Assembly: GCF_004010195.1 (NCBI RefSeq)
Contig: NC_057718.1
Coordinates: forward strand, 62,790,311 to 62,854,310
From: Chiloscyllium plagiosum
Taxonomy: Eukaryota
Direction: 5' to 3'
Length of the DNA stretch: 64,000 nt
The stretch's first letter is position 1. Each line of letters opens with the position of its first letter. The notes below the pieces were generated by a model, which ran no database searches, was not told where the DNA came from, and saw nothing but the letters and a program-made list of their open reading frames with translations. A program made the translations under genes and the position numbers. Positions 5,117-53,154 of the stretch are shown here, one piece after another.

Positions 5117-5279
5117 CTAAACAAGCAGATATTTCAAAAGAAATTGGTCATTTAGAATGTTAAATTCATTGCTGGTATCAATATCATTTTTTATTACAGA
5201 GAGTTAAAAACATTATAGCGTGGTCATAATGGGGGACTTTAATGATCTCAATGTAGATTGAGATAATGGTAGCAAAGAT

Positions 5280-5429
5280 TCTGGATTAGTGGTGCTGGAA
5301 AAGCACAGCAGTTCAGGCAGCATCTGAGGAGCAGTAAAATCTCCTCGGATGCTGCCTGATCTGCTGTGGTTTTCCAGCACCACTAATCCAGAATCTGGTT
5401 TCCAGCATCTGCAGTCATTGTTTTTACCC
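5280..5429. mobile_element. PLE-derived hairpin mini-element (hammerhead core deleted), inserted in a decayed CR1 (~5220-6410, +)
   Basis: Inverted arms; 15 bp TSD aatggtagcaaagat at 5265-5279 and 5430-5444. Confidence 0.8.
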
Positions 5430-6419
5430 AATGGTAGCAAAGATCAGAGTGGGACAAGCGCTCCTAAATAATGTTTGGATGAGTTTTCTACAGGAATGTT
5501 TGTAGTCCAATAAGAAAGAAGGCACAACTAAAGAAGGTTCTTGAGAATGAGGTGCATCAAGTAGATCAAATGTCAGTGAGGGAATATTTAAGTAAGGGTG
5601 ATTGTGATATTAAAGGCTTATGACAACTATTGGAAAGAATAATGAAATCAGTGAAAATTTCTTAATGGGAAGATCATGCTTCACAAAGTTGCTTGAGTTT
5701 ATTGGAGAAATAACAGAGGATTGAGTGTAATGCTGAATGTGACGTACATGGACTTTGAAATAGTTATTTAATACTGTACCATATAACAGACGTATGAGCA
5801 AAATTCAAAGCTTATCAAGTAAAAGGGACAGCAGCCATGTGGATACAAAAGAATGGCAGCATAAACCTGGGTGTATACACCCAGGTGTCCCAGCTATTAC
5901 ATATATACGAGCTGAGAGACCTGGGTGTATACGTATGTATGCAATTAAAGGTGACAGGTCAGGTGGAAAGTAGTATACAGAATTGAAGTATACAATATCC
6001 TAGGCTTTTTCTTAAAATAGGGCATACCGTACAAGATCAAGGAACTATGTTGAGCTTGTGACAGACACCAATTCGACTTGAGAGAGAGTACTGTCTATAT
6101 TTGAGGATGCCATATTTCTTAAGGAGGATGTGAACTAACTGGAAAACATGCAGAAGAGGCTTACAACAATAGTTCATCTGAGAAACTTAAGCTATGAAGA
6201 TACATTGAAGAAGTCAGGACTGGTTTCCACGTAGAAGAGAGGGCTAAGATGGCAGTTTTCAAAATCATAAGCAATTTGGACAGAGTAGATAGGGAAAAAC
6301 TAGTCCCACTCAAAAGGATCTAGAATGAAAGGTCATTGATTTAAAGTAATTTACAAAAGACCAATTGTAATGTAAGAAACAAAACTTCTTCCCATAGCGA
6401 GTTGTTATATGCTGTATAG

Positions 6420-7512
6420 AATCACCATATACACGGTAGGTAATCATATGACTCAGCCAATGTTGTCTATCTCAATGCTGCAGGCAAGGATGCCCTGAGG
6501 CAAGGTACACTGGGGAGACCAAGCAGATGCTACAACAATGGATGAATGGACACCATGCAACAATCGCCAGACAGAGATGTTCCCTCCCAGTTGGGGAACA
6601 CTTCAGCGGTCAGGAACATTCGGCCTCAGATCTTCGAGTGACCATCCTCCAAGGCGGACCTCAGTATCACACTAACGCAGAGTGACTGAGCAGAGGCTGA
6701 TAGCCAAGTTCGGTACTCATGGAGATGTCCTCAACTGGTACCTTGGGTTCATGTCACACTACAGGTGACCCCACTATACTATACACTCTACATACATACA
6801 CACACACGCTTACATACTCACACATTCACACAAACCCTTTCCCATACACACACTCTCTCAGACATACACTCCCACACACTCACCCTCTCACAGGCTTATA
6901 CTCTATCTCTCACACACACACTTCTACCAAGCACACAGACATGCAAACACATACTCCCTCACCCGCACGCTCTCACACACTCACTCTCTCTCTCTCTCTC
7001 TCTCTTTCCCTCACACAAACAAAAATCTGTGGTGAATTTGCATTTGCAGAATTGTATTTGTAGATATATTCTATTTTTGCTCAAAAGGCACACAACCTGA
7101 AGGCAGTCAATTCATATACCATTTTATAGATTCCTACTTTGGAAATAGAACCAGTCTGACTCAAGATTGGGATACAGACTCTAACCTCACACCTTTAATA
7201 CACTGTCTGAGCTGAGATGTCACTATTTTTAATAAAACCTTAAATTATCTCGAGACTGTGACTTGAAAGTAGTTCTGGGATTTACATATTAATGAATCAA
7301 AACCTGCAACCCATTCTAAAAGATGAAAGACTTAACAGCAATCTAGGTTTGTTCCATAGATCATTTAATTGCATGACACAGTGACCTTTTGTTCTAAATT
7401 GTGTCTTATTATCCTGCTCCACTAGTTACCTGATGAAAGAGCAGTGCTCTGAAAGCTAGTACTTCCAAATAAACCTGTTGGACTATAACATGGTGTTGTG
7501 TGATTTTTAACT
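6420..7512 (+). mobile_element. Penelope-like retroelement 3' part (GIY-YIG endonuclease remnant, CA-rich 3' UTR, terminal repeat with hammerhead)
   Basis: Decayed frame ...DSANVVYL...GETKQ...MNGH...LPVGEHF...EQRLIAKFGTH; hammerhead motif at 7424-7463 followed by AATAAA. Confidence 0.85.
7424..7463 (+). ncRNA. Minimal type I hammerhead ribozyme motif (PLE type)
   Basis: UAC-CUGAUGA-A-AGAGC(agu)GCUCU-GAA-AGCU-A-GUA: stem I UAC/GUA, 5 bp stem II, palindromic stem III AGCU, CUA cleavage triplet. Confidence 0.8.
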
Positions 7513-7859
7513 CTGAAGAATTACCAAGATGTGTGATGTTACATTGAAGAGCTTTTAAACGATTGTTTGAATAAAACATTTGGGTTTGAAGGGAAAAGGA
7601 TGAAGAATAGCTCAAGGTTACACGGTTTAAACAAACAGCTGGTGCAAACACACTGAGCTGAATGGGCTCCTCTTTCAATGTAGCAAGTCAGTGATTATAA
7701 CAAACTGAAATTTAAATTATTGAAAAATCTCAACAGATCAGACTCCAAGCATTTTGTTGTTTGCCATTTTAATTCTCCATCTTTCTCCGACTCTGATCCT
7801 ACTATCCTCAGTTACTTGCAGTACTTCAATGCACTTCAATAAATGCTTCATCTTTACAG

Positions 7860-18555: not shown

Positions 18556-18719
18556 TTTAGCCGTAAAGATGGCCTGTCTGGCCTCCGGTATCATATACAG
18601 CTGCTGGATTGTGGAAGCTAAGTAACAGGTCGCTCCAAGATTTGTCAAACCTACAAACCTACACTCAGCCCGCACATCATCATGAGGCCAGTAATCCCAC
18701 TTGTATGGTGCATGAGATG
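18556..18719 (-). CDS. USP34: USP34 exon with the catalytic Cys box: (S)SHAPYKWDYWPHDDVRAECRFVGLTNLGATCYLASTIQQLYMIPEARQAIFTAK
   Basis: 164 nt; tag acceptor, gtaagt donor; USP Cys-box motif G-L-x-N-L-G-x-T-C-Y, with the Cys codon at 18625-18627. Confidence 0.97.
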
Positions 18720-19865: not shown

Positions 19866-20509
19866 TTAGATCTGGTGATGAATAATGAGACGGGTTTCTT
19901 ACAATAATGCCAGAGTAAAGGATCCCATCGGAAACAGTGAACATAATGAGGTAGACTACAGCCTTCTACAGCCCCAGCTGTACATCTCTGCTGTCGTATT
20001 CGAGCCCTCTTGAAATGAATGCTAAAATTGCATTTGCCTTCCCTATTGCCAACTGAACCTTAAGAAAATCCTAAACTAAAACTCCCAAGTCCCTCTATAC
20101 TTCAGATTTCTGAAACCTTTCCTAATTTAGAAAATAGTCCATGCCTCTATTGTTCCTACCAAAGTGCATAACCTCACACTTACCAAACTTATTCCATCTG
20201 CTACTTCTTTGCCAACTCCCCTAGCCTGTCCCATGTCCTTCTGCAGTGTATTTGCTTTGACATTACGTGTCCCTCCATCTATCTTTGTGTCACCTGCAAA
20301 TTTAGCAACAATGCCTTCAGTTTCCTCATCCAGATTACCAACACGGAACTCCGTGAAACTACAGTTACTGGCTGCCATCCTGAAAAAGAACTCTTGATCC
20401 CTACTCTCTGCCTTCTGCTAGTCATGATGTGGAGGTTCCAGTTGAACTGGGGTGGATAAAATGAAAACTCACATGACACTAGGTTATAGCCCAACAGATT
20501 TTTTTGAAA

Positions 20510-20547
20510 CCGCAAGCTTTCGGAGCCCCTGCTCCTTCCTCAGGCAG
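20510..20547 (-). ncRNA. Minimal hammerhead ribozyme motif, sense to the USP34 pre-mRNA
   Basis: CUGC-CUGAGGA-A-GGAGC(aggg)GCUCC-GAA-AGCU-U-GCGG: 4 bp stem I, 5 bp stem II, palindromic AGCU. Confidence 0.75.
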
Positions 20548-20856
20548 CTCGTGAGAGAGAATACATTGGTTGCAGAATTTATAAGTAAAAGATCAAAGGG
20601 TATTACAATTTGTGCGAATGCATTGAACAAACCTAGATGGCTATTAAAGTCTTTAATCAGTTAGAATGGAAGTGCAGGTTTAGATGGATTAATATGTAAA
20701 TCCCAGAATTTCTTTTAAGTCACTGCCCCAAGATAACTTCAGGTTTTACCAGAATAAAGGTAACACCTCTAGTCAGACAATGTATTTTAGGCATGAGGCC
20801 ATGTTTTAAGCCTGTTTATATTTCTAAAGTAGGAATTTATAAAATGCCACATTTGT

Positions 20857-21174
20857 GGGCGGCACGGTGGCACAATGGTTAGCACTGTTGCCTCACAGCG
20901 CCAGAGATCCGGGTTCAATTCCCGCCTCAGGCGACTGACTGTGTGGAGTTTGCACGTTCTCCCCGTGTCTGCGTGGGTTTCCTCCGGGTGCTCCGGTTTC
21001 CTCCCACAGTCCAAAGATGTGCAGGGTCAGGTGAATTGGCTATGCTAAATTACCCGTAGTGTTAGGTAAGGGGTAAATGTAGGGGTATGGGTGGGTTCGC
21101 TTCGGCGGGTCGGTGTGGACTTGTTGGGCCGAAGGGCCTGTTTCCACACTGTAATGTAATCTGTAATCTAATCT
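20857..21174 (+). mobile_element. HE1-type V-SINE, full length, nested in the PLE
   Basis: tRNA-derived head with A and B boxes; V-domain gtttgcacgttctccccgtgtctgcgtgggtttcctccggg; LINE-derived tail gggccgaagggcctgtttcc followed by (taatc)n. Confidence 0.9.
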
Positions 21175-22386
21175 GTAAACTGACTGTCTACAGATCATGT
21201 GCTTTTTGAATAAAATAGAATATATGTGCAAATACAAATCTCCAAATGCAAATTCACCTCATGGATTTATATGTGCATGTGGGTGCGCGTGTACGTGTAC
21301 GTGCACAGGAGAGCAAGCACATGTAAGAGGATGTGTATGTGAATGCATGTGTATGAGAGAGTGTACGCGTATGCGTGTGTGAGGGAGAGTGGATGTGTGT
21401 CTGTGCTTGAGAGTGAGAATGTGAGGGAGTGTGTGAGAGAGCATGGGCGCTTGAGAGAGAAAGTGTGTGAGTGTTCTTTGCAGCCTGGAGCACCTTGCCA
21501 AGATCTTCCCTACACCTCCACTTCTCGCTTTCAAACAACCGTCAAAACTTAAACAGACCATTGTTCACAGCAAACTACCCAGCCTTCAGGACATCGAACA
21601 CACCATATAATGCTATCATGACAACTCCTACTAGACATGTCAAAGCATAGACATGAATACTACAAATGGGGACTCCACCCACCATGTGCACGTCAGATAC
21701 TCATGTGATTCGGCTAACATTGTCTGTCTCATTTGCTGCAAGCAAGGATGTCCAGAAGCATGGCATATTGGTGAAACCAAACAGACGCTATGACAATGGA
21801 TGAATGGACATCAAGCAACAATCACCAGGCATGGGTGTTCCCTCCCAATGGGGGAACACTTCAGCGTTCAAGGACATTCAGCCACAAATCTTTGGGTAAA
21901 TGCCCTCCAAGGCGGACTTTGGGACATGAAACAATGAATTTGCAGATACACTATTTTATTCAAAAAGCATATGATCCGTTGACAGTCAATGTGGCATTTT
22001 ATAAATTCCTACTTTGGAAATAAAACAGATACAAACTTCTAAAATACATTGTTTGACCAGGGTGTCACCTTTATTCTGATAAAACCTGATATCTTGGGGC
22101 AGTGACTTGAAAGAAATTCTGGGATTTGCATATTAATCACTCGAAACCTGCACCTCCATTCTAACTGATTAAAGACTTAACAGTCATCCAGGTTTGTTCA
22201 ATACATTTGCACAAGTTTTATAACCCTTTGATCTTTTACTTATAAATTCTGTGACAGACTACTGCCTAAGGAAGAAACAGGGGCTCTGAAAGCTTGTGGT
22301 TTCAAATAAACCTATCCGACTACAATCCTGTGTCATGGGACTTTTGATTCTGCTAGGCAGCCAATCCTCTGTCCATGCCAGATCTT

Positions 22387-22759: not shown

Positions 22760-24130
22760 GCAGTGCTAGGAAAACTAAAGGGGTTTAAGTCCAATCAATT
22801 CCCTGACCTAATGGAATGCATTTTAGGACATTAATGGAAGCAGTTATAGAGATAGTGAATGCACTCTGGCAGTAATCTTCCATGCATCATTAGATTCAGG
22901 AAAAGCTCCAGACTTCTTGTTGGAAAGGATCTGAGGGAAGGGATTTACATTATATAGAAAAGCAAGGACCGATTAGGGACTGGCATTGTGCATGAGAAAT
23001 CATGTCTCACTAACTTGGTTGAGATTTTTGAAGGAGTAATGAAGAGGATTGATGAAGGTAGTGATCGACATTGACTTCAGTAAGACATTTGACAAGGTTC
23101 CTCATGGTAGACTGTTTAACAAGGTTAGATTACATGGAGAACAATCTATTTGCATACAGAACTGAGTCGAAGGTCGGAGACAAAGGATGGTGGAGGGTTA
23201 CTTTTCAGACTGGACCAGTGGTGTGCCACAAGGATCGTTGCTGGGTCCACTGCTTGGTGTCATTTATTAAAATGATTTGGACGTGTATTAAAGGGGTATG
23301 GTTAGTACCCCTTTAAAGTGAGGGGGGAAAGATCTAAAAGGGACTTAAGAAGCAACTTTTTCACACAGAGGATGACACATGGGTGGACTGAACTGCCAGA
23401 GGAAGTGGTGGATGCCGGTATAATTGCAACATTTGAAAAGCATTGGGATGGGTATATGAATAGGAAAGGTTTAAGAGGGAATTGGCAAGATGCTGGCAAA
23501 AGAGATTAGGATATCTGGTCAGCATGGACAAGTTGGACCCAAGTGTCTGTTTCCATGCTGTACATTTCTATGACTCTAACTAGAGAACTGCCAATGTAGC
23601 ACCTTTACTTAAAAAGGAAAAGGAGACAGGCCTCCTAACATCTGTTGTAAAGACAATGTTAGAATCTATTATAAACAATATAATAGTAAGTAGACATATA
23701 TAACATGATCATGCAAAGTCCAGCATAGCTTCACAAAGGGGAAATGATGGTTTACAAATTTACTAAAATTCTTTGAGGATGTAACAAACAAAACAGATAA
23801 GGTGAAAACAGTGAATGTAATATATTTGGATTCTCAGAAGGCATTTCATAAAATACCACACATTATGGTACTTAAGAAGATAGAACTACATTGTGTTACA
23901 GTTAGTACGTTAGCATGGATACGTGATTTGCTAACTAACAGAAGAGTCTTGAGATATGGGGAGCATTTTCAGATGGTAACCTGTAACGAATAGAATGCCA
24001 CAGGGATCAGTGCTGGTGCCACAATTGTTTACAATGTTAATGATTTACGTACGGAAAGTGAACATACTGACGCCAAGTTTGCAGATGACAAAAAATAGGT
24101 GGGAAGGCTAGTGGTGAGGATAACACAAAG
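22760..24130 (+). mobile_element. Decayed CR1 LINE fragments (nested copies)
   Basis: RT motifs such as IYLDSQKAFHKIPH and FADD, plus a CR1 3' UTR at ~23310-23578. Confidence 0.75.
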
Positions 24131-24495
24131 GGTCAAGGCATCAATCACAAATTTTTTTATTAGCAAATTAAACGCTCATCTCTCTGCCTTGTTCTCATGA
24201 TTTACTGTAATATTCCAGTTTTATGTCAAAAATTAACTTGAATATTTCTAAAGGAATTGGTCTCAAAGATTTCTTTGGCAAGATGAAAAGTTGAGCACCT
24301 CTGTGTTTCTTCATGTTTCAAATTCTTGTCACAGAGTACAAGTTCTTCTCTGCAGTGCCTCCAGTAATTGAATCTCAATTATTTCTGGGCCACTGCACAT
24401 GGATATCATATTCAGGATGTGATTTAATCAATCAGAGAACTGTGCAAATTGTCTGTGACTTCCATTTGGCTGTACTCTACTGTTTTAGCTATGAG

Positions 24496-24706
24496 CTTAA
24501 AAATGTGTTGCTGGAAAAGTGCAGATCAGGCAGCATCAAAGGAATAGGAGAATCAACGTTTCGGGCATAAGCCCTTCTTCCTGAAGAAGGGCTTATGCCC
24601 GAAACATCGATTCTCCTGTTCCTTTGATGCTGCTTGACCTGCTGCGCTTTTCCAGCAACACATTTTTAAGCTCTGATCTCCAGCATCTGCAGTTTTCACT
24701 TTCTCC
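24496..24706. mobile_element. PLE-derived near-perfect hairpin mini-element
   Basis: Arms ~24493-24580 and ~24583-24673; 16 bp TSD ctgttttagctatgag at 24480-24495 and 24707-24722. Confidence 0.88.
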
Positions 24707-25757
24707 CTGTTTTAGCTATGAGTTCAACATTCAAATCATTTTACTGACTGCTGCTCTAAATTGAATGGGAATAGTGAATATTAAATTCAATAAAGTTTCC
24801 AGGTTTCTCTTCAGGTTACCCATATTAATTGCTACACCATTTTTGTATGCATTATCCATTTTTGTTCCCAATGTGCTGCACTTCACATTTTTCTACATTA
24901 AATTCCAAATCCTTTGTTCATCCTGTCCAAACTGCTTTATAATTCTTTTCAATTCCTGGTTTGGGATAATCACTAAAACTTAGCAAACTTGTCTCGAGTG
25001 CTTGAACCCAAGTTAATTGATGCCAGTTAGAAATGATAATGGTTTCAATATGGACACCTGGGACACTACACTTATTGCATCCAGCTATCTCTGTATAATT
25101 CACCAAAAGTGCTTGTTGTTTCCTATCTTCAAATTCATGTAAAACTTTTACCTGTAATCCTACAGTTTTGACTTTTAACTATTCGCCTTTCACGAGGAAC
25201 CTTTTCTAATGCTAGTTACAAATTGAAGAGTTATACTTTGCTGATAGGAGACAATAAGTCAAAACGTTTTATCTTGCATTCATCAGGACCAGGATGCAAG
25301 AAACAAATGGGAGAAACAGGGACACTAATTTATACAACATAACAAGAAGATGCTGACTATTATGGCCATTGTTAGCATGGAGATGCAACAATAGGAGTTA
25401 ATTGTCAATCTTACTTCCCAGTTCAGGCAGATAGATTCTAATTGGTCAGGGTGTTGCCACAGAACCGCAGCAGAGACTGGTGGTCCTCATGACCCTTTTT
25501 ATCAAAAGAAAACAATTAACCACTGTGGAATTGGATTTTGCTCCCTCAAAATCAAGGGACATTGTTAAGCAGGATCCTTCGTTTCTATAAAACCGTTAGC
25601 CAATTAACGTCACCTTTGTTTAGTACTAAGCCCGTTGATAGCTATTTTTATTATATGCTCAGCACAAAGCTTTATGTTTGACCTTTCTTGAAAAGTTCTC
25701 AGTTCTTTGAAATTAGCCACTTAAAAATTTCCAAATGCAATTACAAGTCTTCCTTAC

Positions 25758-25941
25758 ACTGCATGTGTTGTGCCATCACCCAGTTGTGTAGCAGTCTGTA
25801 GTTTTCTGCTGAGCCCTTCACCATTTCCACTAACAAATCGTAGGCTGCTGCTCTGGAGGAATGGGATTTACACTTTGGTTGTTGTCTGTCCTTCAAGCTT
25901 GGAAGTAAGAACAGGAGATTGAACACATCTCTTAGGAATTC
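25758..25941 (-). CDS. USP34: USP34 exon: EFLRDVFNLLFLLPSLKDRQQPKCKSHSSRAAAYDLL...MAQHMQ(S)
   Basis: 184 nt; tag acceptor, gtaagg donor; phase 0 to 1. Confidence 0.96.
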
Positions 25942-26391
25942 CTACGATAAAAGCACAGGAAATATTGCTTTGGATCTCCGTATTTAGCAAGCACAAACAA
26001 AATAAGCTGACTAAACACACTAATGTGCATGATATGTATCAGTAAACTGGTTATACAGATTTAAACAATATCGTTTTAATGGATATGATTCTTGCTCCAT
26101 ACTTCATCCTAACTGACACAACACTATTGTTTGCCAACAGCAAAATTGCAAATCTCTTATAATTAGGCTGCACATGCTGGCTATTCCAATTTTACATTTA
26201 TTTCATTCTTATTTTTGTAATTTAGCCAATAAATTACTAGAATTATATTCTTAACAATATGTAATACTTACATAACTTGAAAAATTACAAGATGAACAAC
26301 CTAAATGAATCTCACTGAGTTCACCCATAATTTTCTTTTCATTCTTTGGATTTAGTCATCCCCTACCTCATGACCAACTTGGTTTCAATAT

Positions 26392-27265
26392 TTGGAGATG
26401 CCAGTGTTGGACTGGGCTGTACAAAGTTAAAAATCATAATACCAGGTTTTAGTCCAACAGGTTTATTTTGAACCACTAGCTTTTGGAGCGCTGCTCCTTC
26501 ATCAGGTGGTTGTGGAGAATAAGATTGGAAGATACAGAATTTATAGCAACTGTTTACCAGTGTGATGTAACTGAAATTATATATTGAAAGAGATCTGGAT
26601 TGTTTTTAAGTCTCTCATCTTTTAGCATGACCATGTTGGTTTCAGTTCTTTCATATGTAAATCGGAAAACTTTTTTAAAAGTTACATTCTCAATTGAACT
26701 TCAATGGGTGTCATGTTGGCCCAGATAATGTATTGAAGGTGTGAGTTTCCCTATGAGGCTATCTGTGCCACCATGATCAGACTGATTCTAATCTAAAAGA
26801 CGGATTTACAGAATCTTACATGGATTCATGTAGTTTTTGAGCAAAGTAAAATGTAATTCTGCAAGTACAAATTCACTCCATAAACTTACATGTAATTTTA
26901 TTATATGCTCAGCACAAAACTTTCTGTTTGACCTTTCTTGAAAAGTTTTCAGTTCTTTGAAACACATAAGTTTGTGGGGTGAATTTGTACTTGCAGAATT
27001 ACATTTTGCTTTGCTCAAAAACTGCATGAATCCATATAAGATTCTGTAAATCCATCTTTTAGATTAGAATCATTCTGACCATTGTGGCACAGATGGTCTC
27101 ACACAGGGAAAATCACACCTTTGATACATTATACATTGTTAAAGTTCACTTGAGAATGTAACTTTTTAAAAAAAGTTTTGCGATTTACAGATGAAAGAAC
27201 TGAAACTAACATGGTCATTCTAAAAGATGAGAGACTTAAAAACAATCCAGGTCTTTTTCAATATA
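26392..27265. mobile_element. PLE terminal-repeat palindrome with ~300 bp inverted arms and a captured 67 bp spacer
   Basis: ~26578-26893 is the reverse complement of ~26963-27265; hammerhead motif (G12 mutated) on the minus strand at 26472-26510. Confidence 0.85.
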
Positions 27266-27519
27266 TCCTTTAGGGAGATGTAAAGGATCTGAAGTGGGTA
27301 CAGAAACAGTAGGCTAGGATGTTATCAGAGATCAAGGACATCTGTTTTGAGGAGATTAGAAAAGTCAGAATCCTTTTACTTCAAAACAAAGTAATAAACT
27401 ATTCAACATTTTTTGAAGAAGAGAGGTTTTGATGAGCAAGTTAGGGAAAACAAAATCCCTTTGGTGCGTGGATCCATGAGTGGTCATTGGTTCAAACTCA
27501 TCAGAAATGGAACAGTTTT

Positions 27520-27830
27520 CTATTTGTTCATGCAATGTGGACATTGCTGACCAGGCCCACATTTATTGCTCATCCCCCAATTCTCAGACAGCAGTTACAA
27601 GTCAACCATATTGCTGTGGGTAAGGATGGCCGATTTCCTTCCCGAAAACCAGGTGGGCTTTTACAGCGATCAATGGTCACTATTAGTCTAGCCTTCTTCT
27701 TTTAATTACAGGTTTTTTTTATTGAATTCAAATTTCACCATTGGCCAAACTGAGATTCGAACCTATGTCCCCAGAACATCAGCCTGGGGTTCTGGACTGC
27801 TAGTCCACTGACATATCCCTAGTACACCAA
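27520..27830 (-). mobile_element. tRNA-derived SINE (related to ~29470-29810)
   Basis: Minus strand has ggttcgaatctc B box and the ggaaggaaatc...acagcaatatggttgac core. Confidence 0.6.
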
Positions 27831-28107
27831 ACTCCCCCAAACAGATGGGAGAGGAGGTGGAACATTTTCACTCAGAGTTGCCCAGGCCCAGAACTCGCTA
27901 TCTAATAAGATAGTGGAAGTAGATTCCATAAATAATTTTGAATGAGACTTCTACAGGTATTTAAGCACGATGTATTTCAAGGATCTTTAACGTAAAGCAA
28001 TGATGGAGGACCAAACAAGGCTGCTCAATTAAAGTGGTTATACATCCACATTGGACCAAGTGGCCACTTATTGTGCTTTATCACTCTAAAATGCTATTTT
28101 CATTTAC

Positions 28108-28228
28108 CTGCCCTTCTCGAGAGAATTTAAATGGAGGCTTGTGCTTTATGACCACCGTGCAAAGTCGCAGAAGTCCTGTAAGTCCATCATCTTCAATGTT
28201 ACTATCCTGCTGATCAAGGATTTCCCTG
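28108..28228 (-). CDS. USP34: USP34 exon: (S)REILDQQDSNIEDDGLTGLLRLCTVVIKHKPPFKFSREGQ
   Basis: 121 nt; tag acceptor (TAGCAG tandem), gtaaat donor. Confidence 0.94.
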
Positions 28229-28326
28229 CTACATAAAAAAGGGGAAGGGAAAGAAAAGAAATAAATATGCAACAATACAATAACAATGTAATCCTGAGAA
28301 AAGCTTTTAAATTTATGTTGACCAAC

Positions 28327-28382
28327 CTGCGAATGCAGTCAGCAAGATGTCTTGCCAAGGCATCCAAATCTAGCAGTGTTGT
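28327..28382 (-). CDS. USP34: USP34 exon: TTLLDLDALARHLADCIR(S)
   Basis: 56 nt; cag acceptor, gttggt donor; phase 0 to 2. Confidence 0.94.
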
Positions 28383-29107
28383 CTGCAGAAAAAAATTGAT
28401 AATAACATATGTACAGTATCAACATAATCAAACGATGCCTTTAAAGTAGCAAAATATTCAAAAGGTACTTCAGAGAAGAATTAAGTTTAAAAAATATTAA
28501 AAACCACATCTCATAAGGAAACATCAGATATAGCCAAAAGCTTGGTCAAAGAGGTAGGTTTCATGATGTATATTAAAAAGGACAAAAAATGGTTGACAGT
28601 AAGGTAGGTTCAGGGAATGAATTCCAGGGTTTATAGCCTCAAGAACTAAAAGGCATGGTGGCTATTAGTGTAGCAATTAAAATCAGAGATGCACAAAGCT
28701 TGAGACTCTACCAACAGCAGTCTACAATGTTCTCTGAATAACTGCATTAAACAAACTGTATGATTCAATAGCTGCAAGACTACTCAAAATTAACAATGAT
28801 GTAAATACTGTGAAAAATCCTCTGCCATCATTCATGTTGAACCAAAGGATATACCTCTACGATATTACTCCTTGTGACATTTAACACATTATCAAGTTAC
28901 CTAATTTCTACTGATTCAATAAATCCAACTGTAAATGTATAAATTCTGGCAGATCCAGTGGATATTTCAAGCTCAAAGACCATGACTTTGAAAAACTGCG
29001 CACAACATACCAATGTAAAGTTAATTATATGACATAATGAAGATAAGATTGCAACAATATACTTTTAAATGCTGGGAGTTAAATAAATGCTGTTTTCAAA
29101 TAAAGAA

Positions 29108-29410
29108 ATTAGATTAGATTACTTACAGTGTGGAAACAGGCCCTTCAGCCCCACAAGTCCACACCGCCCCGCCGAAGCGCAACCCACCCATACCCGTACA
29201 TGAACCCCTTACCTAACACTACGGGCAATTTAGCATGGCCAATTCACCTTACCTGCACATCTTTGGACTGTGGGAGGAAACCGGAGCACCCGGAGGAAAC
29301 CCACGCAGACACGGGGAGAACGTGCAAACTCCACAGTCAGTTGCCTGAGGCGGGAATTGAACCTGAGTCTCTGGCACTGTGAGGCAGCAGTGCTAACCAC
29401 TGTGCCGCCC
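29108..29410 (-). mobile_element. HE1-type V-SINE, full length
   Basis: Reverse complement closely matches 20857-21174. Confidence 0.9.
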
Positions 29411-30959
29411 ACAACTGATGTAAAACTGATGTAAATTTAATTTAAAAGTGAAATGATACTGTTGAATAAAAGGGAATGTAAGCATATTATAATATTACTG
29501 GACTGTTAATCCAGAAGCCTGAAAAAATGCTCTGCAGAAATAGTTCAAGACTCACCAGTGCAGCCAGAGAATTTTTTCTAAGAAGTGCAAAATATATCAG
29601 GAATTAAAACTTTCATTAATGATCTTGAAACAATCAGAATGTGTTTAAAATAAAAAAAATTTGGTTCACCAGTAGCCTTTAGGAAAAGAAAAATCTGCTG
29701 TATTAATTCAATCTGCTCTACCAGATAGGACTCCAGACTCACAGCACTTTGTTTGATTCTTAAATACCCTTTTCAAGAGGTCTAGCAAGCCACTGAGTTG
29801 TATCAAACTGTCAAAGAAAAGAAAGATCAGATAGATGACCCAAATGTTGGTCTCTGGACCAGATGTACACTGCCATGTCAACCCTCCAAACTCATCTTCA
29901 TTGAGATTTGGGCACATGTGCCAAAATTAGGAGAGTACGACATAGACCAATTAAGAAAATCTGATATAGTTGTCTCATTTAATTATACCTTACAGCCAAT
30001 GTCCGAAACTTCTCCATTACCATCCGTGGGTATAGTTGCCCAACAAGTAAGACAGATGAACCAGAGCACAGTGATATACACAGTCAGAAAGAAGTCAACA
30101 ATGTTTATTCTAGATGCCTCAATACTGGCTTAACATAAGAAAGGAAAATATCTGACTTCTCCACGTGAAAAGGTAAAGGGTTAATTACACATCTACTCTA
30201 AGAACAGCTACCAAAAATGTCAGTGATGTCAGATTATGAGGAATTGGAGATTGATTAGGAAGGGTCCAGAAGATGTTCTCTTATACCATCCATTCTTTAC
30301 AATTATTTAAAGTTCACTTACAATAGCACAGATCTGATGTTAGCACAGTGACTGATGGTGACCAGAAACACAGAACCAAAGGCAAGTGGCAAAGATGGCT
30401 GGAAGAAAAAAAACAGAGGCAGCAGAGTGCTACAGAAGGAAGACAAGGTGAGTCTAGTAGGAGGTGGAGGGTGGGCAAATAGAACCTGAAGAGAAACGCG
30501 GTGGCAAGAAACTGAGCTAGACTTCAGAGCCTACCAGAACAATGATCCGCAAAGAGAAAAAGCCCATGATAAAGCTAAAAAAGTGTTGGAGAAACCACAC
30601 AGCTAGGTGATCAGTGATTGTTAGATTTCTGTCAAACATAAATCTTTGTGGGGAGAGATAACTGCATAAGAAAGAAAACCCAGACAGGAAAGAAAAGCAG
30701 TATGTCAATCACTATAGCTCTGCAGCTATGATGGCAAGTTCTTCGTTTTCATCAAAATTGCAGGAGCATACAAAAGGTCCTGATTAGTCAGTACATTGGA
30801 ACCATGGTTTAGCAGATACCACACTGCTTCAGACCGAAATCAAAAATCAGACCATGACAAGTCCAAGAAACCTTTGCACTCAAGCAGTGTCAACATTCTC
30901 ACCTGAAAATGACAACATTCAATAATATAATTAAAGCTTTGAGGAACAGGTACTGTTGA

Positions 30960-31795
30960 GGAAGCAGGGAAGGTGCAGAAGAACTTTGATAGGCGAAGAA
31001 GTGGCAGATGGAATACAATGTGAGAAAGCAAGCAGTTCTGCATTTTGGTAGGAAGAATAGAGATGTAGACTATTTCCTAAATGGGGAAAAGCTTTGTAAA
31101 TCTGAAGCACAAAGGAACTTCGGAGTCTGAGTTCAAGATTCTGTTCAGGTTAACATGCAATTTCAATGTGGAGTTAGGAAGGCAAATGCAATGTTAGCAT
31201 TCATTTTAAGAGGGCTAGAATACAAGGGCATGGATGTACTGCTGAGGCTGTATATGCTCTGGTCAGATCATACATGGAATATTGTGAACAGTTTCTAAGA
31301 AAGCATGTGTTAGCATTAGAGGGGGTCCAGAGAAAATTTACAAGAATGATCCTGGGGATGAAGGGTTTGTCACATGAGGGTCAGTTGAAGACTTTAGGTC
31401 AGTTCTGAGTTTAGAAGGACAAGGGGGATCTCATTGAAACTTACAGAATGTTAAGAAGTCTGGATAGAGAGGAGGTGGAAGAGATACTATCATTAGTGAA
31501 AGAGAATAAGACTCAAGGGCATAGTCTCAGAGTGAAGGGATGATGCTTTAGAACTGAAACGAAGAGGTATTTCTCCAGCCAAAGGATGGTGAATCTGTGA
31601 AACCCTGCCACAGATGATTGTGGAGGCGAAGTCATTGAGTGTCTTTAAGACAGATAGACAGACTCATGATTAGAAAAGGGATGAAGAGTTATAAGAAAGC
31701 AGGAAAATAAGGTTAAGAAATATATCGGTCATGATCAAACTGTGGAGCAGACTCAAATGGACCAAATGGCCTAATTCTACTCCTGTATCTTACAG
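30960..31795 (+). mobile_element. CR1 LINE 3' fragment
   Basis: WQMEYN..., FGRKN and LYxxLVR motifs and a CR1 3' UTR. Confidence 0.75.
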
Positions 31796-32002
31796 TCAAG
31801 ATTAGAGTGGTGCTGGAAAAACACAGCAGGACAGGCAGCATCCGAGGAGCAGGAAAATCGATGTTTCGGGCAAAAGCCCTTCATCAGGAAGGGCTTTTGC
31901 CGAAATGTCGATTTTCCTGCTCCTCGGATGCTGCTTCTGCTTGTCCTGCTGTGCTTTTCCAGAACCACTCTAATCTCCAGCATCTGCAGTACCCACTTTC
32001 AC
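31793..32002. mobile_element. PLE-derived hairpin mini-element
   Basis: Inverted arms; 13 bp TSD ctcctgtatctta at 31780-31792 and 32003-32015. Confidence 0.85.
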
Positions 32003-32134
32003 CTCCTGTATCTTATACTCTAACACATTTTTCAGTTCAAGATGAAGTGGTATTAGACTACACAAGATTAATTGGCACACCAAAATACAAGAGAAACAGT
32101 TTTTTTAAATTCACTCACAGGATATGGATATTGC

Positions 32135-32440
32135 TGGCGACAGGTTGCAGGTTAGGACGGTGGTGCTGAGTTCGAGGGTTGGGACTGAGACAAGGTGGGG
32201 GGAGGGGAAATGAGGAAACTGGAGAAATTTGAGTCCATCCCTTGTGGTTGGGGGTTCCTAGGCAGAAGATGAGGCGCTCTTCCTCCAGCCGTCGTGTTGC
32301 TATGGTCTGGCGATGGAGGAGTCCAAGGACCTGCATGTCCTTGGTGGAGTGGGAGGGGGAGTTGAAGTGTTGAGCCGTGGGGTGGTTGGGTTGGTCGGTC
32401 TGGGTGTCCCAGAGGTGTTCTCTGAAACGTTCCGCAAGTA
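32135..32440 (-). mobile_element. Penelope GIY-YIG C-terminal fragment
   Basis: LAERFREHL...HFNSPSH...MQVLGL...RRLEEERLIFCLGT. Confidence 0.8.
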
Positions 32441-34070
32441 TGAATATCAGATAGGCTGAACTTTGTTAGCAGAACAGATTTCTTATTTCAGGTGACAGAG
32501 AATTTCCCTGCGGTCAGCGCACTGACTCAGACTCAAGCCATTTCATTAATCAGAGGTCTACTAACACAACCAGAAGACAACAACCACAAAGGAATAGGAT
32601 GCCATTCCCATCTTCAATTCTTGTCTGCATTCCAGCAGGAAAATTCCACATCGATGCCAACCGTGCCCAACCAGCAATGCTGAACAATATGCTTACCGTA
32701 ATAAGATTGGCCATCGTGAGGTGATTTGCTGAAAAAGCAATAGGACATTTCAAATTTCACCAAGAAAGTTTCAAAACCATCACCCAGGTTGTAACTGTCT
32801 AAGAAGTAGATAATTCCAAGGACCATAAGATATTTTTCTCAGGCAAAGTGGTAATAAAATGGTGACAAGAAGTTAATTAAAAAGCTATTCAGGAGAAAGG
32901 ATATGCTTATGTCCAAATTGGATCATTCCACTATTTAACGTTCAGAAATTGTTGATCTACGTAAGTGGCAGCTGGAGACTGCAATGGTGTCTTCCCAGCA
33001 AGCTATGGCAACACCCAAATGTCTTTCCAGTGTAGAAACCATATAAATTATAGAGAAATAGAATGTCTTGGTGAAGCTGTGAATTCAAGTATCAAAAGGG
33101 GCTGAAACAGGTGAAAGTTAAACAAGAATTGGAACTGAGTAACTCAAAAAGACAATGAAGTTAAAAGCACAGTTATTATTAATTACACATTACTATCAAG
33201 CTTCCGAGGATGAAAAAAAAAGAGGTAGCATAAGATTTCCCAACGTCCTGTGCAGAGACAGCATGTGTTCACAAGAAGTTTATAAAATGAATTGAGATAC
33301 TACATAGGAGGAAAAAGTCTTCCTTTTACAAAAATAGTCAGAACTCCAAGAGCACCATAAATTGTTAGCTGAGGAAAACTTTCTCCTATAATTCATGAGT
33401 GATGATCCTGTCTGTATAAATGAAACCTGAGGTGGAGATCAAATATCTTCCTTTACATGTACAAAAAACAATGAGAAGCAAGTTCTTTTAAATAACACTG
33501 ATCATCTGCAGAAAGCAGATGAACTTTTGAAATAAAGGCTTAGATGTACATGCGGAGGAAACAATTTGCTTTCCAGCCTGCAGAAAACAGAGCTACAACC
33601 GGAATTTCATATAGATCCTGGTCCTGAAATCTATATCTTTATCACAAATGATGCACTTCTAATTTCTGAAATAGTACCGAAAATGACTTGCCTACAGAGA
33701 ATTTACTGCCCATTCTATTCTCGCACTTATCTTCCCAGGAAATGACAGAGGTGAACATTAATCCTATTCACCTTCTAAATGAGATGAGAATACTGTTGGA
33801 GGTCAATGTCTCAATCAAAAAAGATTAGATTGGCAGGTGAGGGGAACTGAAGTTGAGTTAAACATTTATACTAAATGTTAGTTGGTAGAAGAGGAATAAT
33901 TCAACGAATGGAACTTCTGAAAAAAAAAGTGATATCGCACTTGAAATGTTAACTCTGCCGTTTTTTAAACCACAGATGCTGCCAGGCCCACTTGGCCAGC
34001 ATTTTCTATTTTAATTCCAGACTTCCAGCATCCTCAGTATTTTATTTTCATTTCAGTGCCCTAGATCCAA

Positions 34071-34183
34071 CTACTTGGAGGTGCCGGTGTTGGACACGAC
34101 CACCTGATGAAGGAGTGACACTCCGAAATCTAGTGCTTTCAAATAAACCTGTTGGACTATAACCTCGTTGTGAGATTTATTAA
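34071..34183. mobile_element. PLE mini-element (GGAGC-stem family) with a hammerhead motif at 34101-34135
   Basis: TSD ctagatccaa at 34061-34070 and 34184-34193; CAC-CUGAUGA-A-GGAGU(gac)ACUCC-GAA-AUCU-A-GUG. Confidence 0.75.
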
Positions 34184-35082
34184 CTAGATCCAATTAGTTT
34201 GTTTGTTTCATCAAAGACCTTCTTTCTATCAATAGTGTCAGAAGTGAGGTGTTCGCTGATTATTATACTGTGTTCAGTTTCATCCACAACTCCTCAAACC
34301 ATGCCTTCAAGCTATAACGTTCAGATAATAATCCAGAGATTGCAATCCTCTGGGACATGCTTCTTAATTTATTTCATGGTACTCTCCAAATATGACCTCT
34401 AACCTACTACATTCCCACACTGCTGGGTCCCAACATGGATCAGAATCATTGAATTATTACCACAATAACTTGCAAGCTTAGGAAAGCCCTCACTCTGATA
34501 GCTGGTAGAAAATGTACCATCTGGTACTCTCAATCTTGTTTACAAAGAATCTCAATTTCTGATTACTGAATCCCCGACAACTGCCGATCACATCCTCCTT
34601 TCACCAGCCCTTCAGTTTGGACAGCTATCTGCTCAAAAGATGCTATGGTCAACATTCTGCACTTTAGTCGAAAAGTGTGGCGCTGGAAAAGCACAGCAGG
34701 TGTGCATGTGTGTGCATGCGTATGTGTGTATGGGTGTGCGCTCGCGCACGTGTCTGTATGGGGAGGACTGAGTGATCAACAGGAGGGTGGGAGAAAGGTA
34801 GCTAGGAAGTCGATAGGTAGATGCAGGTGTGGAGGTGGTGATCGGTCGGAGTGGAGGGTGGAACAAATACTTGGGAAGGAAGATGGAATGGTAGGACAGT
34901 TCAAGAAGGCAGTGCCAAGTTGGAGGGTTGGCCCTAGGATGACGTGGGTGGGTGGGGGATGAGGAAACGTGAAATTCTGGACTTTAGTTCTATCCTTGTC
35001 GATGAAAGATACATTGTGCCTTCTGAATAATTCAGTTTCTGTAAATCCTTGTTCTCTGTCTTACCCAGGCCCCACTTAGTCT

Positions 35083-35219
35083 GCCTCTATTCCTGATGAA
35101 GGGATTTTGCCCGAAACGTCGATTTTCCTGCTCCTCGGATGCTGCCTGACCTGCTGTGCTTTTTAGATTAGAGTGATGCTGGAACTTTGGTTTCCAGCAT
35201 CTGCAGTCCTTGTTTTTAT
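35083..35219 (+). mobile_element. PLE mini-element with a hammerhead core (35089-35124)
   Basis: 11 bp TSD ccacttagtct at 35072-35082 and 35220-35230. Confidence 0.8.
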
Positions 35220-35302
35220 CCACTTAGTCTACAGACTACTACTCACTCCAATCCCATTCTGAACCTGTGACTCTTTGCAAGGTATGACAAAGTATGGATA
35301 AA

Positions 35303-35507
35303 GTTAAAATTCACAACACCAGGTTATAGTCCAACAGGTTTATTTAGAAGTACAAGCTTTTGGAGACCTGCTCCTTCAACTAGCTACTTAATGAAGGAGC
35401 AGCGTTCTGAAAGCTTGTACTTCCAAATAAACCTGTTGGACCATGACCTGGTGTTGCATGATTTTTTTTAAAAACTTTGCCCATCTCAGTCCAACACTGA
35501 CACCTCC
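35303..35507. mobile_element. PLE hairpin mini-element (GGAGC-stem family)
   Basis: Inverted arms; 16 bp TSD acaaagtatggataaa at 35287-35302 and 35508-35523. Confidence 0.85.
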
Positions 35508-35769
35508 ACAAAGTATGGATAAACTGTCCAAATAATTCTCCTTTGTGTACTCTTTACCCCAACAACTGAAGTTTGGAGACTGATAAACTGACCGCAAATT
35601 ATGTTCACTCAGGCAAGCTCACTGTTCATGATGCATGTTATATGCACAACCTGCTATGCCAGAACTTAGCAAAGAATACATACATTATCTTTCCATTACA
35701 TATCACTACTTTTTTGTTCTAAAAACTAACGTGAACTAAATACAAACAACGGACAAAAAATGTAAATAC

Positions 35770-38730
35770 TTGCTGCTTAAGACCTGAATCTTCAAAGATA
35801 CGAGGCATTTAAAATTAACAGAAAACTCGGGAAAAGGTGGAGGAGTGGCATTGTTCATTAATCACTATATTACCATAATAAAAAAGAATGACTCAAGATC
35901 CAGAAAACAATATATGGAAACAATTTGGGGTAGAAATGAGAAATTATAAAGAAAAAAGACTTGTGCGAATATACAGGCTCCTTAACAGCAACCACATAGT
36001 AAAGTGCAACATTAAGGAAGAAATAATTAGAGGCTGTCAAAATGGCACAGCGATAGTCACGGGAGATTTTAATCTACATGTAGACTGGAAATGTCAGGTG
36101 GGCAAAAGTACCATCAGATGAGGTATTACTACATGTTTTCTAATAGAATAGGTTTTTTGAACATCATGTTCTGGAGTTGACTGGAGTAGACCTTGTATTA
36201 TGCAATGATATAGGATTAATTAATGATTGCATTGTGAAGATCCTCACTATATAGCAGTGAGTGTAATATTAATGAATTTTACATTCTGTTTCAGGGAAAG
36301 ATAAATGGGTCTAAACCTTCATTAAAAATTTAAATACGAGGAATTATGAGGCATGAAAACAATCTAAAGTAAACTGGCTATTTGGATCAAAGGACAGGTC
36401 AACTATGCAGATATCTGTATACTCAATAGATACTTTCCAACAACTTAAGCAAAATTCCAAGGGACAGACTTGCCATCAGTGGTTAACTACAAATGTCAAA
36501 AGGAGTGTAAAACTAAAAGAAGAGACACATAATTGCACAATGACAGATGACAGATCAGAAAAATGGAGAGGATATTCAAAAAAGATAAAAAAAAGGAAGA
36601 AACATTAGTTCACATTAGTATTCAATATAGTGGACACCATTAACATCCCAGAAGAGGTGGTAATTCAGGAAATGAAAGTGAGGAACTCAGAGGAATCACA
36701 GAGACGTGACACAGAGTAACTGCTGAAGCTGCAGACCAACAAGTGCTTGGGTCCTAATGGACTTCATTCTAGAATCTGAAAAGAAGAGGCTAGTGAGATA
36801 GATGACGGATTAGTTTTAATTTTCCAAAACACCCTTGCTTCGGGGAAATCCTATTAGATTGAAAGTTAGTGAACATAACTCACTTCAAAAAAGGAGACAC
36901 CAGCATGTAACTACAGACCAGTTAGTTTAACATCTAGCATAGGGAAAATGACAGCAGCTGTTATTAAAGAAGTTACAGCAGGGCACTTGGACAGGTTCAA
37001 AGAAATCAGGCACCAATGGTTTTGTGAAAGGGAAACCAGGTTTGACCAATCTATTGGAGTTATTTGAGGAGATAACATGTGCTATGGATAAACGAGAAGC
37101 AGTGACATTTATCTTTCAGCCCCCTGGCCCACAAGCCTCATTCTTAATGCTGCCTGACCTGCTGTGCTCTTTCAGCACCACACTCTTGACTCTGATCTCC
37201 AGCGTCCGCAGTCCTCACTTCCTCCGAGACAGTAGTGTATTTCAGTTTCCAGAAGGAATCTGATAAGCTGCTATACCAAAAGGTTATTGCAGAAAGGGAT
37301 AGCACATTGACACAGACAGAGGATTACCTAGCTAACTGGAGATATATCATTGGTGCTTTCTTTTAAAAACAGGTCAGCAAGATGGGTATCTCAACTGTTC
37401 ACAAGTTTATACAAAAGTATGATGGAGGGGGATATGGTTGCTTAATATGCTGACAGCATAAAGAAAGGAAAGCAAGTTAAGAGAACATAGGAAGCTACAC
37501 AAAAAATATATATAGGTAGGCTAAGTGAAAGGGCAAAGACGTGACAAGTGGACTATAATGCAGAAAATGTGAAATTGTCCATTTTAGCAGGAAGACTAAA
37601 AGAAAAGCAGATTATCTAGATTGAGAAAGTTTGCAGAGCTCTGATATGTAGAGAGGCCTGGGCTCTTATATGCTAATATTACTACGCAGATGTAGCTAGT
37701 CATTAGGAAAGCTAACAGAATGTTATCATTTATTGCAATGGGAATTGAATATCAAAGTGGGAAGTTATGTTTCAGTTATATCAGACACTGTTATGTCTAC
37801 ATCTGTGCATGACATCTGTCATTTTATTTAAGGAAGGATCCCATCGTGATTCAGGGAAAGTTCACTGACCTGGAGTGGGCCTGTTGTCTCATGAGAAAGG
37901 ATTGGACAAGTGAAGCTTGCATGTGTTGGAGTTTAGATGAGTAAGAGATGACTTGACGGAAACACAAAATCGCGAGAGGTCTTTGAGGAGAATGTGAGGA
38001 CTGCAGATGCTGGAGATCAGAGCTGAAAATGTGTTGCTGGAAAAACGCAGCAGCTCAGGCAGCATCCAAGGAACAGGAGAATCGATGTTTCGGGCACGAG
38101 CCCTTCTTCAGGAATGAGGAAAGTGTGTCCAGCAGGCGAAGATAAAAGGTAGGGAGGAGGGACTTGGGGGAGGGGCGTTGGAAATGCGATAGATGGAAGG
38201 AGGTTAAGGTGAGGGTGATAGGCCAGAGTGGGGGTGGGGGCGGAGAGGTCAGGAAGAAGATTGCAGGTTAGGAAGGTGGTGCTGAGTTCGAGGGTTGGGA
38301 CTGAGACAAGGTGGGGGGAGGAGAAATGAGGAAACTGGAGAAATCTGAGTTCATCCCTTGTGGTTGGAGGGTTCCTCAGCGGAAGATGAGGCGCTCTTCC
38401 TCTAGCCGTGAGAGGTCTTTGACAGGACAGATGAGGTTTTTGGGAAAATGTAGAAATGCAGTTATTGTAGAAGTTAGGAGTCACCTATTTAAAAAGAGAG
38501 ATGAGGTGAATTCTTTTCTCTTAGTGTCATGTCTTTGGAACTCAGTTTTTGTAACCTTTCAGGAAAAGTCCTCAAATATTTTTAAGTCATACACAGATGT
38601 TCTTGTTAAGAAAAGCAGTGAAAACTTATCAAGGGTAGGCATGAATACAGATTTGAAGTTACAATCAGATCAGCCATAATCTGGTTCAATGGCAGAGCAG
38701 GCTAAGAGGGGCTGTATGGTGCATTTCAGT
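35770..38730 (+). mobile_element. Old CR1 LINE (APE through RT and 3' UTR), interrupted by PLE insertions
   Basis: GGGVAL, IVTGDFNLHVDW and GKPGLTNLLELFEE remnants. Confidence 0.75.
37987..38409 (-). mobile_element. 5'-truncated Penelope element (end of GIY-YIG, 3' UTR, hammerhead at ~38081-38115)
   Basis: RLEEERLIFR...LQPQGMNSDFSSF; 13 bp TSD gagaggtctttga at 37974-37986 and 38410-38422. Confidence 0.85.
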
Positions 38731-43246: not shown

Positions 43247-44875
43247 TGGACTGTTTGGGACTCTTATGATACAATGGTAATGTCCCTATTCCTAGATCGG
43301 GAGGCCCAGTTTCAAGTCCCACCTGCTCCAGGAGGTATGTAATAATATCCTAAACAGTTTGACTAGAAATTTAAAAAAGTGGACTGTTTGAGGAAGGTTC
43401 TTGTGGCTCAGTAGCAGTGGCACAGCAGTAGTGGCCCTACCTCTGGAACAGAAGGCTCAATTCAAGTCCTAACCGCTCCAGTAGCATAATATCACTGAAC
43501 AGATTGACTGGAAAAATATCCAAAAACGTAAGCTGAAGAGGTCTTGCGGTGCAGTGATAGTGCCCCTATCACGGAGCCAGTGGCCGGAATTCAACTAATA
43601 AACAATATTCTTCAAAAATGTCTAGCTGGAATTTTGACATCACCTAAAACGGAATTTACATGCCCCAAACAAATCTGGCTTAAAAGTGTATCCAGCATAA
43701 GAATTTCAGAATCATAGAGCTGGGGGAGGAGGGGTGTGGTGTCAGTTAAATCTTTTGGCTGGTTTGTGATGCACAGTGACAGCAACTGTGACAGTTCAGT
43801 TCCCACACTGGCCAAGGTTACCATGAACCTTCTCATCGTGCCCCTCGCCTGAGGCGTGGTGATCTTAAGGTTAAACTCACCACCAACCATCTCTTGAATG
43901 ATATGCTGGTATGGTTCAGTGGCAATGTTCCTATGTTTGAACCAGGAAGCCTGGGTTCAAGTTCCACTTGCTCCAGAGGTGCTCATTGAACAGGTCGACG
44001 AGTAAATACCTAGATGGACTGTTTCAGGGTTATGGTGGCACAGTCATAGCCCCTACCTCTGAACCATGACACCTAAGTCTGTCATAGCATATCTGAACAG
44101 ACGGTTGCAAAATATCCAGATGGACTGCTTCATGGTTTCAAAGCACCATGGTAGTGTCCGTGCCTCTGGGCCAGGTAGTGGAATCAAGTCCCACCTATTT
44201 CAGACGTGTGTAACATACCTGAACAGATTGATTAGAAATACCTAGATGGACTGTTTTATCAGCTTCCTGTGGCACAATGGTCATGACCTTACCTCTGAGT
44301 CAGGAGACCCAGGTTCAAGTCCCACATGGCCCCGAGGTATGTAATACCATCATCAAACACGTTAATTAGAAATGGCTACATTCTGTATCTTTGGCAGCTC
44401 TTGTGATATTGTCCTTAACTCTGGGCCACAAGGCCAGCATATATATCTCCAAGAGGTAAATCAAAGCATCTTCCTGAATAGGTTGATTTGAAAATATCTC
44501 AATGGACTGTTTTCTGATTCAGGAGGCCCAGGTTCAAGTCCCACCTGTTTCTAATGTATATTGTGACATGTCTGAGCATGATTTGAAATACCTAGTTGGA
44601 CTGGTTTATAGAGGCCTGTGGTATAGGGGCAGTATTTCCAAACATGAGCCAGGAAGCCTGGGTTCAAGTTCCACCTGTTCCAGGAACGTGTAATAACATT
44701 GTTGAACAAGTTGATCAGAAAATATTTAGATGCATTGTTTATTGGGTTCTTCTGGTGCAGTGGTAGTGTCCCTACTTTTGATACACACAGCCAGGATTCA
44801 CATTCCACCTGCTCTCGAGGTGTGTATTAACAGTTCTAAATAGGTTGATTATAAAATATCCAAATGGCCTATTTT
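43247..44875 (+). repeat. Tandem array of ~11 diverged ~95-145 bp tRNA-like (SINE-derived) units, interrupted by another SINE at ~43720-43895
   Basis: Units start with tggactgttt (43247, 43380, 44015, 44121, 44247, 44503, 44598 and variants) and carry A-box-like tggYrcagtgg, B-box ggttcaagtcc and tail gaacaggttgattagaaaatat. Confidence 0.85.
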
Positions 44876-52943: not shown

Positions 52944-53154
52944 GTTGAGAGTGTGGTGCTGGAAAGCACAGCAGGTCAGGTAGCATCCGAGGAGCAGGAG
53001 GAATCAATGGTTTGGGCATAAGCCCTTCATTCCTGATGAAGGGCTAAAGCCTAAAACATCGATTCTCCTGCTCCTTGGATGCTGCCTGACCTGCTGTGCT
53101 TTTCCAGCACCACACTCAACTCTGATCTCAAGCAGCTGCAGTCCTCACTTTCTC
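52944..53154. mobile_element. PLE-derived hairpin mini-element
   Basis: Inverted arms centred at ~53031; imperfect TSD ccatc(t/c)a(t/c)aacagta. Confidence 0.8.

Follow-up and report, generated by a model that had tools for sequence, protein, structure and literature searches.

The stretch of DNA analysed here, which we call the window, comprises 64,000 nucleotides of the genome of Chiloscyllium plagiosum, and all positions given below are counted from its first letter. On its minus strand lies a gene which a sequence-only reading of the window had named USP34, and this identification was borne out by a downstream exon (18556-18717, minus strand), the best of whose 34 matches was PDB entry 7w3r, the solved catalytic domain of USP34, with 37 of 38 positions identical (E 7.5e-19). 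Another coding exon of the gene, 184 nt long and located at 25758-25941 on the minus strand, has an open frame and AG/GT ends, and it lies between two copies of a short stretch of intron, one of which forms the centre of a palindromic insertion.

This insertion is made of two inverted arms and a spacer, and is flanked by a 9-nt target-site duplication, TTTCAATAT, whose left copy is at 26383-26391 and whose right copy, at 27256-27264, also matches the element at the end of the short arm in all nine of its bases and in the next two. The long arm (26392-26893, minus strand, with an uncertainty of 2-3 nt at its outer boundary) is a 5'-truncated piece of a Penelope-like element (PLE) that covers the 3' UTR as well as the terminal repeat and retains the 3' tail of the family, and the short arm (26962-27266, plus strand) is the inverted counterpart of 26579-26893, without terminal repeat and tail. 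The arms stand head to head, facing away from the centre, and both terminate at the same element base; they differ at 27 of 301 aligned columns, with 18 further gap columns. Position 26893 pairs with 26962 in the inverted arms, and the non-element spacer is therefore 26894-26961, 68 nt long, which agrees with the earlier statement that a copied segment fills the gap between the arms. At about 27118-27145 some 14 nt of the long arm are missing from the short arm, which shows a tandem repeat of 7 nt there, a scar resembling those of slippage or repair.

The assignment of the insertion to the PLEs, already made in the sequence-only reading, appears well supported by the arms, the GIY-YIG remnants of related copies, the inverted copy, the tail, the duplication and a hammerhead core. 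The arms are 71-76% identical to family copies at 6400-7530 and 20413-22356, and GIY-YIG-like remnants are found 5' of the common UTR in family copies at 6452-6685 and 21480-21940; in the former (plus strand) the coding remnant is followed by a CA-rich tract and then by the same 3' UTR, which runs to about 7515. The truncated insertion at 26392-27266 itself has no GIY-YIG coding part, and it combines an inverted 5'-truncated copy adjoining the 5' end with a tail on one side only. An Atlas search with the family's coding remnants placed a GIY-YIG cluster third (0.92, with 176 features in common and the family on 23% of members), and Pfam searches matched none of three pieces and none of five. 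A relaxed pattern scan located a decayed minimal-hammerhead-like core at 26482-26505 on the minus strand (CTGATGA ... CAAA, where the core wants GAAA), the GAAA being kept in family copies at 7430 and 20543; a minimal hammerhead motif in the PLE terminal repeat is described in passages of PMC4209133. Rfam gave no hammerhead match over 24000-36000, and its 19 matches in that span, mostly to microRNA models drawn by hairpins and all below the gathering score, were put down to chance. An exact scan for two element words found no locus in metagenome contigs and none in viral contigs.

The spacer and its source

The spacer had been described as a 67-bp copy, with three mismatches and in the same orientation, of USP34 sequence at an offset of 1250 bp, and alignment agrees: by blastn within the 64-kb window, 25646-25712 recurs, in the same strand, at 26896-26962, where 3 of 67 columns are mismatched (25669, 25674 and 25698; E 6.2e-27), and the alignment stretches leftward to 25643-25712 and 26893-26962, then with 4 mismatches in 70. 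The source (25643-25712, with its core match at 25646-25712) has its first base at +46 of the intron, counted from the donor of exon 25758-25941, in keeping with the earlier figure of about 45 nt, and ends at about +115, so that the two copies do flank the exon; no splice site falls at either end of the copy. The separation of 1250 bp holds as an offset but not as the distance that the copy travelled, because the offset counts the long arm; with the insertion removed, source and target lie 671-740 nt apart. The copied tract has a GC content of 27%, lower than the 37% of the surrounding intron at the source. The nearness of the source to an exon needs no special cause, this being just what sits 0.7 kb from the target.

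No second comparable match to the 67-mer was found by blastn in the 64-kb window: among the 34 matches listed, all were of 18 nt or less with E of at least 0.07, save the self-match, the source and one 22-nt self-inverted match, which is located at the left joint. Exact 20-mers that occur just twice in the window, less than 5 kb apart, fall at five offsets, of which 1250 is that of the source and copy. It is very improbable that there was no capture here, whether through the 67-mer being a dispersed repeat or part of the element RNA, through the exon-proximal copy being the derived one, or through the assembly being wrong. Membership of the 67-mer in the PLE consensus had been raised by the sequence-only reading itself; beyond the inner end of the arms, two of three aligned family copies show a CA/CT-rich tract instead (the third has an internal deletion there), and the best match of the spacer to the three PLE copies is 9 nt. 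Since the family copies that run on show this tract, the spacer is regarded as host and not element sequence. Mis-assembly is disfavoured by the 3-4 differences between copy and source and by the 27 differences plus gaps between the arms, which it would not make, and by the intact target-site duplication. Moreover, 8 of the 24 listed sequencing runs contain at least half of the sampled words of 24800-28400, a share that bears on the region as a whole and not on the joints; these 8 runs belong to two studies of the same organism, one of which may be the assembly's own source, and runs with a small word share (X14, X22-X24) were left out.

Joints, neighbouring palindromes and a proposed order of events

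The right copy of the duplication is the sole 9/9 site among 494 long-arm positions; as a chance control, 154 of 200,000 random pairs of 19-nt windows have a common 9-mer. Since this copy doubles as element sequence, the short arm would have been joined by microhomology between the target end and an internal element site, over 9 of 9 bases plus 2, with the duplication retained. At the inner joints, source and arm have one base in common on the right (A26962) and one or two on the left (T26893 and perhaps also A26894). A single joint base, A26895, is unexplained by the source, and it completes a perfect 10-nt palindrome at 26886-26895 across the joint of long arm and spacer; there are 62 such palindrome centres in 64 kb, which corresponds to about a 1% chance in an 11-nt window. 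This palindrome may record a brief first attempt at pairing the two arm ends, but we place little weight on it because it rests on the present long-arm bases 26889-26890, where the arms differ.

The reading that we prefer, with a probability of roughly 55%, is one of twin priming, with reverse transcription of element RNA begun at each end of the cut target, and of a polymerase that then spanned the gap between the cDNA ends by briefly copying host sequence nearby. The PLE endonuclease would have made a staggered break in the USP34 intron, the 9-nt overhangs being deduced from the 9-nt duplication; the left end would have primed reverse transcription at the 3' tail of the RNA, producing the long arm, and the right end would have paired with the matching word of 9-11 nt inside the element RNA, producing a second cDNA as the short arm. 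Both cDNAs would have halted at one 5' stop, which in the present sequence is common to the two arms and coincides with the border of the CA-rich tract of the family, and their 3' ends would have annealed poorly because they were identical and not complementary. Host sequence 671-740 nt further left may then have primed and templated the extension of one of these ends by about 68 nt, after which the end would have been released and joined to the other cDNA end through a microhomology of 1-2 nt. Microhomology at the second-primed end together with a clean duplication is given as the signature of L1 twin priming in passages of PMC11702581.

The direct orientation of the copy fits a DNA or an RNA template. 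A short-arm cDNA copying the resected left end would give a direct-orientation copy from the left flank, and the available text of PMC7165422 traces inserts in direct repeat to the copying of one, resected end by the opposite end; alternatively, a jump of the long-arm cDNA to USP34 pre-mRNA, which has the element's sense, would give the same orientation. DNA, as the resected or invaded left flank, is the probable template, since nothing in the sequence demands RNA, and USP34 pre-mRNA is a lesser candidate, serious even though the copy neither stops at an RNA end nor crosses a splice joint. The copying enzyme could be either the PLE reverse transcriptase or a host repair polymerase. What stands of the earlier proposal, a polymerase jump onto host DNA or nascent USP34 RNA during integration, is the copying of local host sequence; its timing at integration and the nascent-RNA template are no more than proposals, and neither end of the copy falls on a splice site.

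A single cDNA might also have made the whole structure, the long arm jumping to host DNA or USP34 RNA, copying 68 nt and folding back to give the short arm, which would have annealed to the overhang; such an origin we consider quite unlikely. The short arm lies entirely within the long-arm sequence, and the long arm runs in the sense of USP34, hence a jump from RNA to pre-mRNA would preserve polarity; self-priming has been proposed for PLE palindromes, according to passages of PMC3846280, and parts of PMC11371274 report R2 cDNA ends that snap back on the cDNA or, less often, on nearby target DNA before the 5' joint is made. A snap-back strand annealing to the target overhang would, in addition, predict the same microhomology at the short-arm end. 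However, synthesis after the fold-back would have had to restart precisely from the final base of the element, held by a single paired nucleotide, and at two other insertions in the window neither arm is contained in the other. One, a copy of the same family at 20413-22356, is head to head with a 9-nt duplication and has its tail in the left arm only and a coding piece in the right arm only, and in the other, at 31799-31976, the short arm carries 5' bases absent from the long arm. Fold-back of one cDNA would therefore not account for these, and the arms of each would have been copied from RNA, as in twin priming, unless the insertions, which are old (the arms of 20413-22356 are about 80% alike), were reshaped later. 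At 26392-27266, where the long arm contains all of the short arm, the arms do not discriminate whether each of them was copied from RNA; the junctions nevertheless fit two primed ends and a filler better than one cDNA folding back, which changes the earlier notion of a jump preceding the joining of the inverted arm.

In six head-to-head insertions flanked by duplications, the duplications measure 15, 16, 13, 16, 9 and 9 nt and overlap the short arm by 4, 3, 1, 0, 9 and 2 exact bases, respectively, the value 0 being distorted by a T-run in the long arm and a seventh insertion, 52949, lying outside the measured set. Among the nine palindrome centres of the window that were searched, local capture is present at 26894-26961 only, none of the eight others having a source within 5 kb; this speaks against the preferred reading, and it is what the survey of other PLE palindrome spacers called for in the sequence-only reading gives within the window. 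The best match of any of these centres to unique sequence, that of 2645-2668 to position 1000, is 10 nt long, could not be extended and is attributed to chance, and matches of 13 and 15 nt from other centres are to other element copies and not to local sources.

The window holds several further structures of this and other kinds. At 2635-2680 a PLE palindrome has both arms reaching the same 5' start with an 11-nt spacer between them, and a 10-nt local match at chance level. Small hammerhead-type PLE palindromes lie at 5265-5444, 24480-24722, 31780-32020, 35287-35523 and about 52928-53174, with duplications of 13-16 nt (possibly up to 20 nt) that in several cases overlap the short-arm end, and with centres that vary by copy. 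The left arm of 20413-22356 is broken by a younger short repeat (about 20845-21175) and its right arm has an internal deletion near 21940. A stop-free frame of 272 aa at 55751-56569, without a Pfam match, presumably resembles the C-terminal part of another, Poseidon-like, PLE family, and near it is a 139-nt direct repeat (54294/55608). Six degenerate 65-nt repeats occupy 43267-44817, with near-exact pairs at offsets of 707 and 232; inverted short interspersed repeats of a young family, complementary at 84 of 84 nt, lie 8.2 kb apart in USP34 introns (20942-21025 and 29252-29335); and a 14-nt direct repeat at 5865-5932 flanks a 60-nt imperfect inverted repeat unlike those of the PLE families.

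It is also conceivable, though unlikely, that the spacer was acquired later, a near-perfect palindrome having formed a hairpin or cruciform that was cut at its centre and repaired by copying local DNA, which stabilised it. A cut at the hairpin tip would naturally give a symmetric end point, a 10-nt palindrome is left at the left joint, and perfect palindromes are said in parts of the review PMC8701086 to rearrange centrally at high rates and to be stabilised by spacers. In the same parts, however, 93% of 118 centre rearrangements are symmetry-breaking deletions, whereas symmetry is kept here, and spacer inclusion is uncommon in transgene concatemers; within the window, palindromes at 24493 and 52949 persist with almost no spacer. 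The age of the parts bears on this too, the spacer being nominally half as diverged from its source (4.5-5.7%) as the arms are from each other (9.0%), which would favour later repair over the preferred reading, but the difference is not significant: 3 of 67 (95% interval 0.9-12.5%) compares with 27 of 301 (6.0-12.8%) at a Fisher p of 0.32, or 0.59 once five CpG-compatible changes are removed. Spacer and arms thus appear to be of compatible age, by a test of little power, and one event fits. Two other organisms represented among the sequencing runs (B and C) are, by a rough estimate from word shares, about 2.5-4.5% diverged, which is below the 9% between the arms, and the insertion is therefore probably present in them as well. 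The insertion is old, dead and probably neutral.

Known systems and meaning for the family

Described PLE insertions resemble this one in their head-to-head arms, one-arm tail and AT-rich target, and in a duplication which is 9 nt here and 8-10 bp in rotifers (parts of PMC3846280 and PMC8557442). The inverted joints in those accounts have overlaps or small palindromes, in contrast to the copy of neighbouring host DNA found here. Spacers of host DNA in Pen1 (0.9-1.5 kb) precede the 3' terminal repeat, with no local source named in the passages of PMC3846280 concerned, and genes captured in trans by rotifer PLEs sit, according to the same text, between direct repeats. The formation of PLE inverted structures is described as open in a passage of PMC8557442, and one of PMC11167929, on in vitro work with PLEs, describes the steps after priming as unvalidated; that text also has the anole PLE starting reverse transcription without homology to the cut DNA, which weighs against a right end primed by microhomology. 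Our coverage of the literature, consisting of titles, abstracts and passages with few subscription papers and no supplements, contained no description of twin priming or local fillers in PLE palindromes, and the portion of PMC9977147 included had nothing on PLE joints.

A close parallel is L1 twin priming, which likewise shows microhomology at the internally primed end, a clean duplication and extra templated pieces at the inversion joint (excerpts of PMC11702581, which include 3 insertions containing sequence copied from genomic DNA close by). Passages of bioRxiv 10.1101/2024.08.27.596794 count 22 templated insertions among 3,598, with templates that typically measure less than 250 bp and lie no more than 15 bp away, whereas here the template is 671-740 nt away; they give L1 inversions a median overlap of 22 bp, whereas about 310 nt are present twice here, a further point against the preferred reading. 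The PLE insertion also differs from L1 in being without poly(A) and in its endonuclease. The R2 snap-back joints (parts of PMC11371274) are similar in that the 3' end of a cDNA is extended on its own strand or on host DNA close by before the joint is made, but they involve a single cDNA at a constant position in the rDNA of cells in culture, in contrast to the two arms, tail, duplication and signs of two primings seen here. Inserts made by polymerase theta share the direct-repeat arrangement, the AT-rich setting and microhomologies of 1-2 nt; their usual 3-30 bp, templates within 30 bp, single tracts rarely above 10 bp and distal templates in less than 0.1% of repair (passages of PMC7165422) make a 68-nt tract from 0.7 kb away atypical, and this too weighs on the preferred reading. 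Locally templated joint inserts are thus already known from L1 and R2, and host DNA from rotifer PLEs; what differs here is the PLE head-to-head joint and the distance of 0.7 kb.

The insertion probably has no effect on the host gene. In the pre-mRNA its arms could fold into a long hairpin, with a predicted minus-strand fold of -400 kcal/mol over 688 nt, a value that carries no shuffle control, and loss of the 184-nt exon flanked by the two copies would shift the frame.

The evidence for the mechanism is one fossil locus. Its joint preserves what looks like a second end primed through microhomology together with a templated bridge, a combination that favours twin priming over self-priming and offers a signature that can be counted. 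Only tentatively, and with the balance against it, may this be extended to the family as a whole, such that PLEs are routinely twin-primed and their identical cDNA ends often bridged by the element's telomerase-like reverse transcriptase on host sequence about 1 kb off, either nascent RNA or long-resected DNA. If true, PLEs would act over a range of distances unlike that of polymerase theta or L1 and would produce small local duplications throughout the genome, and fossil joints surveyed genome-wide could reveal how PLE integration is completed.
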